Origin: Harriotta raleighana
Taxonomy: Eukaryota
DNA length: 64,000 nucleotides
NCBI GenBank assembly: GCA_050575255.1
Contig: JBNZDD010013714.1
Span: forward strand, 4,805,600-4,869,599
Direction: 5' to 3'
Shown: positions 36,100 through 42,890 of the stretch, in pieces
Layout of the letters: the number at the start of each line of letters is the position of its first letter
Position numbering within the stretch: the first letter of the stretch is position 1
Made by a program: the position numbers and the translations under genes
Notes under the pieces: generated by a model
The model's database searches: none
Told to the model about the DNA's origin: nothing
The model's input: the letters and a program-made list of their open reading frames with translations, nothing else

Positions 36100-36700
36100 A
36101 GAGTCAGGCTGAGCTGAAGGCGGCTACTGCGGGCAGCTCTGAAGGTGCTGCAACTGCCAACGCTCACCGCCGGTCACGTGGTTTGCCATTGCCTGGAGCG
36201 CCTGGGAGTGATGGACGAGCTGCTGGAGTGAAGAGGAGGCACCAGGCATCCTGGGAGATGTAGTCCGTTTACTTCAACCCCACCTCGGGCCAAAGAAAGC
36301 AGAGAACTACACGTCCCGAGGTGCAGTGCGCCGCATTTCCTTTCCACACTCCTCCCACGCTTATCATCGTCGATTGGTGGCCCGGGCCGCCTCGTTTGCA
36401 TATTGCTAACTCGGTGACGAGACGAGCTCCTCCGGGCTGCTGCGTTGTTGCCAAGGTAACGGGGTTGGCGACCGGAAGTGCGGTGCGAGCGGGAAGGAGG
36501 GGACGCTGCAACGAAGAAGGAGGAGGGGGAGGATGACCTCGGCGGCATCGCAGGAGCTGAAGGTGGATTTTATTCTCACTTTACTCCACGACAGAGGGGG
36601 CAAGATAAAATATGCAGAACTGGTCAACATGTTTGAGACGGTTTTGTACCACGCCGCGCCAGACGTCAGGGGTAAGTAAGTAAGTGGGTGACAGTCGCTG
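36100..36700 (+). promoter_or_regulatory. CpG-island promoter / first exon of the divergent Sowah-like transcript
   Basis: Sharp GC- and CpG-rich island in AT-rich surroundings. ETS/GABPA-type motif ACCGGAAGTG at 36471-36480. Closed by a strong donor G|GTAAGT at 36672. Confidence 0.8.
36533..36671 (+). CDS. sowah: Sowah (sosondowah)-like gene, coding exon 1 (N-terminal domain)
   Basis: GGAGGATGA start. Manual translation MTSAASQELKVDFILTLLHDRGGKIKYAELVNMFETVLYHAAPDVR matches the SOWAH N-terminal pattern (VL.FL.E.GGKV.N.EL...FK..L). Phase-1 donor GTAAGT. Confidence 0.82.
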
Positions 36701-39331
36701 CTATCCTGCTGTCTGTTTTTTTTTAAAAAAACGCAGTTTAAATCCCAGGGATTAGCCCGGAGGCTTTGAACTCGTGTTTGTTTGTTCATTTTATTTTTTA
36801 TTTTCGTCTTCTTCTTCTTCTTCTTCAATTCATTGGACAATTCATCGTTCTTTTACTGTCTCCGAATTGGGGAGGAATGCACCCTGCCAGCAATTCGCCG
36901 CGTTTTCATTTAGTTTTATTTCCGACGTCATTAGAATAGCATGAAACCTATATCTATATGTGCATTATATACAGAGAGATGGACGGGCAGAAAGAGCGAG
37001 AGAGACATTGAAGTTGTCCGTGTGATTTGGTTAGGACACGAAAAGTGATTGTGAAACTGCTGTTCTTTTCGTACACGCTTCAGGGCCGTCAACGGAAACT
37101 TGCTCCTTATTTTATAATCCTTGATATGGGACTGATTGCGGATCACATTGCTTGCTTTGATTAAACTGGCATTCTTCAGCACTACTTTGATTTTGAGTAA
37201 ACAGACTTTTCTCGTTTTTATGTGGTGCTGGAAAGTTACATTTTCCTTTCCTTGGTGCTAAGATTAACTGCCTATTTTTTATTTTAATAGTCATTTTTTC
37301 CCTACAGTACAGTATTTGAGAACACGTCTGTATAATAAGAAAATTGGCTTATTGAATTACTGTAGTTTAATTCTGTTATATTCGTGTCTGCAATTTTACT
37401 TTTCAGGCGTATAATTACAGCATGACTTGTCAAAAAGAACAAACCTACTTTTATTACCGTTGAATACAAATATAAAGTACTCGATGGACTAAAATGGACC
37501 ATTCATATGGTGTTGCATATTCTGTTAATAATCCGTTGAATATTTAGAAATATCCAAAATAAATACTGTAGCATTATAGTTTAATAATAATTTATAAATT
37601 GGCAATAAACGAGCTACATTAATATTTGTATTTTCTAAATCTGAAACTTGCACTAAGATGTATCAGTAATTAGCTATTGCTGTTTCATTGGCTCCTTCAT
37701 CTGTTAAATATTGACTTTTTAATTATTTAATATTTTAAAATATTAAAATGTGAATTATATGAACTCTGTTACAGTATGAATCAATTTGTGCTTAACATTG
37801 AGCATTGAGAGTAGCATTTAACTGTTCAGTTGGAAAACTTGTTCTGATGCAAAAATGTCTGCTATGTAAATCTTAAATTTACTTAAATCAAGCAATGCAG
37901 ATTTGCAGTGTCACACAGTTTCTAGTCAGTTATTTTTTGCAAAACAAACATGACAAAATGGATAGATAATGTTAGTATTGATCAGCAATATGTGTATTCT
38001 TCTGAAACTTTAACAATGAATTTACACATTGATGAGTTGGGATAAATTATAATGGCACCATATGATTTTAAAAAATATATTATATAACCTCTAAGATTGT
38101 CTTTAGAAAATGGTATTGAGATTTTTTTTTATTTGACAATAATTATTACATAATGCAATATAGTACTGCAGTCATTATGTAGTAACTTTCAGAAAATCTT
38201 AAATTTCCACTTCCGATAGAAAATCACTGAACAAATTAGTTTAAGAACTGTACATTCACATCTTTTGGTATTCTTTTATAAGTGGTTCACTATAATTGTT
38301 TGTGGAGTCACTTTTATTTTCAGGTTGTTTTAGTGCTGGAAAATGGAAGGGAAAATAACTTTCAAAAAAATAAAATGTCTGTTAACGATTGTTTTATACA
38401 GCCAAGGTGTATTTTTTTAATATAAATCTGTCCCAAATTGTAAAATGAGCAACAATTGTTGCAACACTCAAATAATAAGGATGTTTTCTAGATAGCAGTG
38501 TGGCTGCTGTTATTAGTGATATTGGTGTGGCTACTGTTTTAAGTTTATCTGCCAAAAGGTAGGAGTGAACAAAAATGGAAGCCTTTTCTTTTCTCACTGA
38601 GCCTGTATTCTCTAAGTAACATCATGCCTTTATGTCTAGTCTCTGTGCTTAGATTATAGGAGCATGTCAGTAACACTTCAAATATTTGTTGATATGAACA
38701 GTGATATCATTTTAATGAAATGATATTTCCCTCCAGAAATCATAATGTTTTTAATCTCATGTATACTTGTTCAATTGCACCTTTAAAATCTTGGAAATCT
38801 GTAATAAAGATGTATAGTTATTACGTGCATTGCTAGCACAGGTGGTAAAGTACTTGCCTCACAAACAGATGGTTGTGGGTTGGAGTGCCAGTTGTGTCTG
38901 CCAGTCAAGTTTGTCTGCCACTGTTTGGAGTGAACTTCATCATTTCTTGGCTGGGATGCTACAGTAGATGGAGCCCCATGCTATGGCAAGATGTTCCACC
39001 TTGGAAGAGTTGAGGGAGGTGGGGTGGTAGGGAGGGGGTATTAAGACTGACATACTTGGCTCGCCTGACTGTTAATGCACCTCCTGTAGGATAATCATTT
39101 TGATGAACATGAACGGAGATCCAGACCATCCTATCCTGGCGAAAGGAGGATGTATGATGGTTATTGATTCCCAGGATAATTCACAAATAAAGGAAAAATA
39201 AAACTTTCTATGCTGAACTGTTTTATCAGTAACTTAGTTATCATTAAACCAATAACTAATGTCTTTACATATATCCACCTGGCATTGAAAGCTTTTGAAT
39301 AAATAAACTTTTTTTAATATCTCATTTTTAG

Positions 39332-39393
39332 ACAGAAACCGAAAACAATTCCGAGATGTCCTTTCAAAAGTTGGTTTTATCACTGAAGAAGAG
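39332..39393 (+). CDS. sowah: Sowah-like gene, coding exon 2 (62 nt)
   Basis: Acceptor CATTTTTAG|AC joins exon 1 in frame (G+AC=Asp) to give DRNRKQFRDVLSKVGFITEEE, matching SOWAH R..FK.FVN.VA.V.E. Phase-0 donor GAG|GTAAGG. Confidence 0.8.
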
Positions 39394-39464
39394 GTAAGGC
39401 TGTTTCATTGATTTCTGTTCAATATAAGCAAGATATCATATTATAATAATTTATTTTGTTTTAG

Positions 39465-39542
39465 TAAGTCTGTCGTGTTGTGTGGACAAAATCAACCTGT
39501 AGCGTTGAAAAAAATTAATTAGCATCCCTTTAAAACTAAAAG
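39465..39542 (+). pseudogene. Sowah-like exon 3, truncating (stop-containing)
   Basis: Follows a 71-nt intron. Acceptor TTTTAG|TAA gives an immediate stop. Alternative acceptor TAAG|TCT (39469) gives SVVLCGQNQPVALKKIN* (TAG 39520-39522), resembling SOWAH K[FY]VVL. Donor AAAG|GTATGT at 39543. Confidence 0.6.
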
Positions 39543-40927: not shown

Positions 40928-41594
40928 TGCAATGTGTTGTCAACCATATTTTGTTGGGATTAAAACCAACTCTTTGAGGATGTCACTTCTACTTCCTATA
41001 TAATTTGCGCATGGGTGGTTTAGCTGATGTTGGATTTGTTTGTTGATATGTTTGTGTAGTGATGGGTGAAAAAATGCCTTGGGAACAGTTCACATATTGC
41101 TATTTTGCAGCCTATCTAAGGATATATACTTTGATATTCGATGTGTCCTCCAGGGCTCCTACCTATCAGTTACATGTCAAAATTAGTAACTGAACATCCT
41201 AACTAGAGAAATGACAAATTATAGGTACAGTTAATACCACTGAATTGGTGCGGAAGGGTGGGACTGGTTCATATTTAAAAAACAATTCTGACCTCAAATT
41301 ACAGCTCCAGTAGACACTACTCAACAGAGAAAATGCCTTTACCTCAAATGAGTTGCTTATCGATTACAAGTAGCTTCTACTGACCGTAGGATATTAATTA
41401 GTCGCTAGTGGTCCACATCCTCATTACAGATAGCCACACAAGCCACGATGTAAAGGGTTTGAAACAGCATTACTCTAACTAAAAGTGTCCAAAAGAGCAA
41501 ATCCTCAGGAAAAGTACATTGAGCATGTGTTCAAAACTTTTCTAGGGATGAGTAGATTTTCATCTTATTCTCTAATGAAATAATAATTCTCCTA

Positions 41595-41910
41595 ATAATA
41601 ACCATTGCATTTGATATAGCTCCAGTAATATCCCAACTTTTCAAAGTCCTTCACAGGTAACTGCTAGAAAAAGCAGTGATTGTGTATGTTTAAGCAAACA
41701 CAACAGTCAGTTTGCATACAGAAGGTTCTACGAACAGCCAGGAAGCAAGCAACCAATTTCTCTGAAGGATTATTGACCACTTCACCAGAAGAATCCCTGT
41801 TCTACTTTTGAATAATACAACATACACCTGAATAGGCTGATATAACATACGCTCTAAAGGATGGCACCTCTGACAATGCAGTTCTTCAATTTTCACTGGA
41901 AAGTCAGCAT
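41595..41910 (-). mobile_element. Old, degraded DeuSINE
   Basis: Tail TTGCATTTGATATAGC and Deu motif AAAGGATGGCACCTCTGACAATGCAG. Confidence 0.6.
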
Positions 41911-42746
41911 AGAGAATACTATAGTTGGTATTAAGAAAATAATTGACGTTTGCAATTCATGAGATTTGAATATGAAAACAGGAGTGTAGCAGAAGCCATT
42001 TAATGTTTAAAATATTTGTAAATTCTGTTGAAAATTGGAATGTGCCATTGAAATGAATGAAACACAAATTAACAGTTACATTTCCCACATTTCCAACACC
42101 CTCAGTATTTAAGTAGAAAAATGTGAGTTTGATGATTTTTTTTATCGAAACCTCAAGCACATATTGCAGTGATTAATTTTGGGTTATCAATCAATAAATG
42201 GGTAGTGGTATTATCAGAACAGTGTAACCATCATCAAATATAAACTATGTGAAATGCTATGGGTCTTGCTATGTGCTTTAATATCCACTATGACAGAAAA
42301 AAATAGAACCAAAGCACCCCATCATCTTGTGAAATTGAATTATTAAACTAATGAATGCATGGAAATAATTTCAAGGCTGTAATCTTGTTGTGGGGTTCAA
42401 ATGACAGTTGTCAAGTGCTTGAGTTCCACTCTTGTGGTTATGACGTCATCTGAACCTGTTAATGGGATTACTACCTTGTAATCACTATAGGATATCCATC
42501 ATGCTAAATATACTTAATCTTAATTTGAAGAGTCCAATCTGACATTCATTTAATTTTATCCTAACTTTATTGTACTGATTCATTGTCAAAGATTAATTCT
42601 ACAAGTATTTTTTAAATGCATTTTGGCTATAAAAGATCAATGGATTAAATGAACAATTACTCATCAAGAATAGTGAAAACTCTTCATGGATTAGCTGTAA
42701 TTACTTTAGTTCCTTGCTCATATGTGTGATTCTTTGATCTTTTCAG

Positions 42747-42890
42747 ATTCAGTCGTTTATTTCAGGTTTTGGAACAAATGCAATTATCAAAATGTTATAA
42801 GTTATAACTTGTGCTTAACAACAATAATAATAATACTGGAAGCAGAAATGTTGTTTGTTTCAAGAATAAATTAGATACATTTTTGCTATT
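42747..42890 (+). other. Candidate terminal exon of the Sowah-like/CRNDE-like transcript
   Basis: Acceptor TTCTTTGATCTTTTCAG|ATTCAG at 42746/42747 and AATAAA at 42865-42870. Confidence 0.3.

Follow-up and report, generated by a model that had tools for sequence, protein, structure and literature searches.

A Sowah gene beside Irx5 in Harriotta raleighana and its possible bearing on the origin of the lncRNA CRNDE

Conserved Sowah exons at the locus

The stretch of DNA analyzed here (the window) covers 64,000 nucleotides (nt) of the genome of Harriotta raleighana (contig JBNZDD010013714.1, positions 4,805,600 to 4,869,599), and it includes the beginning of a Sowah gene next to an Iroquois (Irx) gene. 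An initial annotation had described this locus as an evolutionary intermediate between a protein-coding Sowah gene and the long non-coding RNA (lncRNA) CRNDE, with a CpG-island promoter, three Sowah-like exons and a terminal exon. The first coding exon (36533..36671, forward strand) has its ATG at 36533, consists of 46 codons plus 1 nt, and is intact; over 46 amino acids (aa) it is 91% identical to the product of LOC103176098 of the elephant shark, Callorhinchus milii (E 3.5e-17). The second (39332..39393, forward strand) is an intact 62-nt exon running from phase 1 to phase 0, with 19 of 21 aa identical and a score of 53-70 bits. The intron between them (36672-39331) is GT-AG, and the gene adjoins an Irx gene on the opposite strand. 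Among 1550 GT sites, the donor after 36671 ranks second and that of exon 2 ranks first; these and all other splice-site ranks come from a crude matrix, with which 1567 AG sites were also compared. Exons 1 and 2 join in frame into 67 codons, whose residues belong to the N-terminal SOWAH winged-helix region.

A search with the exon 1 protein gave 4 matches among 12 candidates, all of them isoforms of C. milii LOC103176098 at 91% identity. Residues 1-130 of the C. milii protein matched 5 of 409 candidates, adding a protein of the shark Heptranchias perlo at 72%, and a search of representative proteins returned three matches, namely two C. milii proteins and one repetitive match at 43%. The 67-residue peptide of the window is identical to C. 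milii XP_007887671.1 at 61 positions and to H. perlo XP_067853670.1 at 50, which fits a chimaera (holocephalan) as the likely source. With this identity, the in-frame junction and the high-ranking donors, the first two of the three exons in the initial annotation are borne out. Four of the six residues that differ from C. milii are the same in the window as in the shark, which places these changes on the elephant shark branch; the other two are ambiguous. No residue change in exons 1 and 2 can be clearly assigned to the Harriotta branch, and the frame is open with canonical splice sites. When neutral drift was simulated at 0.1 substitutions/site, the frame was broken in 85% of 3000 runs and was open with at most six changes in 0.27%; at 0.02 substitutions/site the corresponding figure is 62%, which makes the test powerless.

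The 91% identity of exon 1 is to proteins that bear a precomputed PF25877 (SOWAH winged-helix) assignment, which places the exon in this family. In the Atlas, the top match for residues 1-98 of the orthologue is WHD_SOWAH (0.78), which is a lead only. Searching with hmmscan gave no PF25877 match for exon 1, nor for the C. milii orthologue itself, and the profile is likely absent from the library. Two other candidates were set aside: Pfam returned for exons 1 and 2 alone only a sub-threshold match to PaaX, and exon 1 alone fell in the Atlas among bacterial helix-turn-helix clusters (up to 0.91), again only leads.

The proposed third exon and the second intron

The third Sowah-like exon of the initial annotation, at 39465..39542 on the forward strand, does not withstand comparison with the orthologue. 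It has a strong donor (39542/39543, rank 10 of 1550, 149 nt past exon 2) and no detectable Sowah likeness: in six settings, its scores with the orthologue segment that comes next range from -15 to 7.2 bits, where exon 2 reaches 53-70, and 89-158 places per strand score equally well or better. Residues 68-98 of the orthologue are identical at 26 of 31 positions between chimaera (C. milii) and shark, which would make an intact exon 3 easy to recognize. Splicing to an acceptor at 39465 leads to an immediate stop, and splicing to 39469 gives an 84-aa product with its stop 20 nt before the next junction. We also simulated decayed copies of an exon 3. At five levels of decay, the highest being 0.5 substitutions/site, none of the 150 runs per level fell to 7.2 bits; 13 of 150 did so at 0.7, and 49 of 150 at 1.0. 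The stretch at 39465-39542 is likely, from its sequence, a piece of intron.

With a back-translated profile that tolerates gaps and frameshifts, exon 1 obtains 151 bits and exon 2 65 bits, and the ten segments that cover residues 68-409 reach at best 25.5 bits anywhere in the window. Neither tblastn nor this profile detected any Sowah segment beyond residue 67 within these 64 kb. We predict that 39394..64000 (forward strand) is the start of a long intron 2, of at least 24.6 kb, in which repeat copies lie.

Some further features touch this predicted intron. The segment 50150-50560 is free of repeats and by eye resembles a conserved non-coding element, which makes it a candidate Irx enhancer. 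A dispersed repeat family, likely a short interspersed nuclear element (SINE), occurs in both orientations at 39905-40193, 43027-43321, 45920, 47476-47713, 53246-53379 and 58686-58873, as well as at 4743-4814, where the only Rfam match, tRNA-like (41 bits), probably represents the head of a SINE-like copy. An exact 78-nt duplicate at 51092-51255 lies on both sides of a single N (51170) and likely marks where assembly pieces were joined, and a gap of 190 N is found at 20055-20244.

Irx5, the CpG island and the position of CRNDE

The head-to-head neighbor of Sowah is a coding region of three exons on the reverse strand (28387..30691, ATG at 30691), recognized among the open reading frames and by its Homeobox_KN/TALE homeodomain (PF05920, E 5.9e-19). 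From its termini, in view of those of IRX5 and IRX2, we take it to be Irx5; a search of the PDB could not tell Irx5 and Irx2 apart. The ATGs of the Sowah and Irx genes are 5842 nt apart, on opposite strands. The window is AT-rich (GC 0.37), and a CpG island at 35981..36720, delimited by 200-nt GC and CpG criteria, marks the predicted Sowah promoter; from 36100 to 36700 the GC content is 0.59 and the observed/expected CpG ratio 0.85, versus 0.42 for the whole window. The island claimed by the initial annotation is confirmed here.

Within the island we noted sites that we presume to be ZNF143-like (36264, reverse strand, and 36306, forward strand, in divergent orientation), X-box-like (36447), ETS-like (36472) and an E-box (36173). 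Each is expected 0.003-0.03 times in resampled island sequence, a range that applies to motifs picked after reading the sequence. ZNF143-like motifs are also found at 52479 (forward) and 56923 (reverse), outside any CpG island. A long pyrimidine tract at 36060-36101, with AG at 36100-36101, lies ahead of the island, and there are upstream ATGs at 36211 and 36258. To judge from these signals, a transcript starting closer to Irx5 could splice into the 5' region of Sowah through this AG.

CRNDE is transcribed divergently from IRX5, in the position and orientation described in PMC3509318, and its span and place in the IrxB cluster are confirmed in PMC4795576 and PMC8212766. Its promoter is located inside the CpG island of IRX5 itself, at a distance of about 2 kb, and conservation is highest in its introns (PMC3509318). 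The conserved intronic elements of CRNDE include gVC-In1 and gVC-In4. In position and orientation the Harriotta locus matches CRNDE. A divergent unit does lie just upstream of Irx5, on the same side and strand, with an orientation given by splice signals. Its island, however, is one of its own, 5.3 kb from the nearest island of Irx5 (30331-30710), and is not shared as that of CRNDE is.

The exon-intron geometry invites comparison as well. Human CRNDE has exons of 285-398, 113, 66, 113 or 30, and 344 nt and introns of 3280-3556, 1450, 3174 and 1088 nt, the 3174-nt intron being the one that separates exons 4 and 5, and the mouse gene has exons of 433, 64, 135 and 114 nt and introns of 4933, 3772 and 320 nt (PMC5577775, supplement 3). 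Exon 4, of 66 nt in human and 64 nt in mouse, is close in size to Sowah exon 2, and the distance from it to the comparable later exon is 4375 nt in human and 4227 nt in mouse. On hg19 chr16, human exon 4 occupies 54,957,496-54,957,562 and the acceptor of exon 6 is at 54,953,121. In the window, 2982 nt separate the 62-nt exon 2 from 42376, which follows an AG ending at 42375, and 3353 nt separate it from 42747. The leads on CRNDE exon 4 are discordant. Oligonucleotides from this exon show by eye only a patchy likeness to Sowah exon 2, and the exon-4 peptide given in PMC3509318 matches residues 11-19 of Sowah exon 1 (score 22, reached by 18 of 5000 shuffles, uncorrected), which conflicts with an equation of CRNDE exon 4 with Sowah exon 2.

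Two sites further downstream bear on the relation to CRNDE. The first is the candidate alternative last exon at 42747..42890 (forward strand). The acceptor (rank 28 of 1567 AG sites) and an AATAAA at 42865 are present as the initial annotation said, but they are not special, being one of four equally good acceptor-plus-AATAAA sites between 36.7 and 64 kb, where there are 30 AATAAA. Splicing of exon 2 to 42747 stays in frame and gives an 84-aa product. The likeness to CRNDE that had been suggested for the start of this exon is real in that 10 of its first 11 nt match, by eye, a published CRNDE primer (PMC7276211, PMC4694835), but it fades beyond, where only 3 of the next 9 do. Unrestricted chance matches of this quality between a 1059-nt RNA and the region number about 108. 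The 11-mer presumably follows directly on the tenth codon of CRNDE exon 5 in its short form, and would then start human exon 6. Only if this start holds does the chance expectation become 0.0005 (9 strong acceptors) or 0.012 (333 AG sites). The short form of exon 5 measures 30 nt (PMC5577775, supplement 3), and a printed CRNDE epitope covers nine of its ten codons (PMC4433331).

The second site, 42376..42436 on the forward strand, weakly resembles two overlapping published oligonucleotides that belong to human CRNDE exon 5 in its long form, and has an AG at 42374-42375 and a CTAAT 28 nt upstream. For the primer (PMC4433331, Table 1; placement in PMC4791275), one of the best matches ends at 42418, and 95 of 400 shuffles equal it, which is chance level. 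The overlapping small interfering RNA (PMC6477934, PMC7468588) agrees by eye with 42413-42436, where 17 of 19 bases match if two gaps are allowed. A hand score for the pair (42398-42436) was reached by 10 of 1500 random 34-mers, a probability of about 0.07 after allowing for about a dozen oligonucleotides. No donor above 3 bits follows the stretch 42376-42436. Between 42330 and 42900, folding is no better than in shuffles (z -0.71) and there is no Rfam match.

A probably intact Sowah gene and a possible origin of CRNDE

The locus probably represents the 5' end of a Sowah gene that is linked to Irx5 and intact, and whose remaining exons we predict beyond the window, behind an intron 2 of more than 24 kb. 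The mRNA would run on through exon 3 into the exons for the ankyrin repeats and would encode about 400 aa, as in the elephant shark; the long introns would be kept as carriers of Irx enhancers, in an Irx-Sowah regulatory block, and the pieces at 39465-39542 and 42747-42890 would normally be spliced out. The idea of an intermediate that is losing its coding role finds no support in exons 1 and 2, which have an open frame, canonical splice sites and 61 of 67 residues identical to a full-length orthologue, and which show no sign of the stops, frameshifts or neutral drift expected where coding potential is lost. The locus most likely shows the ancestral coding state, and not a transition. Linkage of Irx and Sowah and the loss of this linkage in tetrapods are published (PMC5803294, PMC12311624). 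Human CRNDE likely occupies ground that was once held by the 5' end of this gene, before its loss in tetrapods.

Several points weigh against this conclusion. No exon past the second was found in the window. The annotated H. perlo protein XP_067853670.1 has just 257 aa and no ankyrin matches. It ends at the point from which the C. milii isoforms vary by pieces the size of microexons, and either a microexon was overlooked there or the protein is truly truncated. Purifying selection on exons 1 and 2 is inferred, on the assumption that the neutral distance to C. milii exceeds about 0.05 substitutions/site. With the donor as its anchor, the stretch 39465-39542 takes rank 3-12 among 672, which hints weakly and post hoc at a remnant; the exon end assumed in this ranking was selected after the site was seen. 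Finally, to judge from the CRNDE-like signals at 42.4-42.9 kb, a last exon that is in use may lie within intron 2.

This last point leads to a reading that we regard as possible but rather doubtful, in which the gene is intact and also makes a short isoform, in which a last exon starting at 42747 directly follows exon 2 and which ends at the AATAAA at 42865; this isoform would be the ancestor of CRNDE. CRNDE exon 1 would then be the island exon, its exon 4 a relic of Sowah exon 2, and its exons 5-6 the 42.4-42.9 kb region, with the 42747 exon having become exon 6; the short isoform would have outlasted the long coding form when tetrapods lost the latter. Exon size and spacing in the window are near the human and mouse values, the resemblances to exon 5 and at 42747 come in the right order and strand, and the frame stays open across the new junction. 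All these matches, however, were made by eye and after the fact among about a dozen oligonucleotides, and the 11-mer counts as the start of the human last exon through a presumed adjacency, apart from which such matches are expected in abundance. The match at 42747 breaks off after 11 nt, the exon 5 primer alone is at chance level, no good donor follows the exon-5-like stretch, the exon-4 leads contradict each other, and the island is not that of Irx5.

That Sowah is truncated and decaying here, as the initial annotation held, with an exon 3 degenerated at 39465-39542 and a nascent lncRNA ending at 42890, is unlikely. It would account for the lack of any exon past exon 2 over 24.6 kb, for the strong donor at 39542 with its donor-anchored rank and for the CRNDE-like position, but exons 1 and 2 are intact and conserved, and the C. 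milii orthologue is full-length. Decay to the observed exon 3 score would require at least about 0.7 substitutions/site, a poor fit with 91% identity next door, and a search for short Sowah proteins, of low sensitivity, gave 0 of 2 candidates of 30-223 aa. Least probable of all is a split gene, in which exons 1 and 2 make a winged-helix-only protein of 67-92 aa that is under selection and uncoupled from the ankyrin exons. Such a gene would explain conserved exons 1 and 2 without a nearby exon 3, and products of 84 aa and 92 aa that end in frame are possible. These endings are unlike the orthologue, the same low-sensitivity search found no short protein, and the conserved residues just past exon 2 would be lost (a predicted strand at 71-73, in an AlphaFold model of the C. 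milii orthologue whose mean predicted local distance difference test score, 33, marks low confidence and makes it too poor for a fold search).

If CRNDE descends from this locus, its 3' exons would come from Sowah intron 2, and not from Sowah coding exons. Were the short-isoform origin true, the skeleton of CRNDE would be older than the loss of the protein and would date to the jawed-vertebrate ancestor, and the route would be that of a minor, intronically polyadenylated isoform outliving its host gene. It makes predictions at the level of single bases: CRNDE exon 4 should correspond to 39332-39393, exon 5 should fall near 42376-42470, and the acceptor of exon 6 should be 42747. No link between CRNDE and Sowah was found in the literature searched, which includes PMC8042270 and PMC10412459 but not Maeso et al. 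2012, and in which no paper names Sowah, Irx and CRNDE together; one thyroid cancer paper mentions both CRNDE and Sowah.

For the intact Irx5-linked Sowah that we favor, the closest counterpart is C. milii LOC103176098, annotated as "SOWAHC-like" (XP_007887669.1 to XP_007887676.1, 325-410 aa), which has the same start residue and the identity given above over exons 1 and 2. The exons beyond the second are not seen in the Harriotta window. XP_007887671.1 has 409 aa with ankyrin repeats, and the isoforms differ by single residues around these repeats. As an intact gene, the Harriotta Sowah is an orthologue that the annotation of the elephant shark gene leads one to expect, within a regulatory block already known from the literature. 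With the block, as far as it is described in PMC5803294, PMC12311624 and PMC3342872, it shares an intron-containing Sowah beside an Iroquois gene. There, long introns are expected to hold Irx enhancers, and Sowah was lost at tetrapod Irx loci, with remnants left; an enhancer content of the Harriotta introns is predicted by analogy.

With human CRNDE (hg19 chr16:54,952,777-54,963,079, reverse strand) and its mouse counterpart 4933436C20Rik, the locus shares divergence from Irx5, a CpG-island first exon, an internal exon of 62-66 nt, about 3 kb to the next features, and two short matches, one of 10/11 and one gapped. It differs from CRNDE in that its exons code for a conserved protein and its island lies apart from that of Irx5; a counterpart of human exon 2 was not identified. 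The route proposed for CRNDE is that of XIST, JPX and FTX, lncRNAs that derive from lost coding genes (PMC5577775). That survey counts CRNDE among the conserved lncRNAs and used no cartilaginous fish; the CRNDE locus identifiers are present only in its conserved list and absent from its table of lost-gene pairs, which may use other identifiers. If the predictions above hold, CRNDE would join XIST and JPX as an lncRNA born from a coding gene. Unlike the loci from which XIST, JPX and FTX arose, the Harriotta locus has not lost its coding potential, and it could serve as a slowly changing ancestral template for the origin of a much-studied cancer lncRNA.

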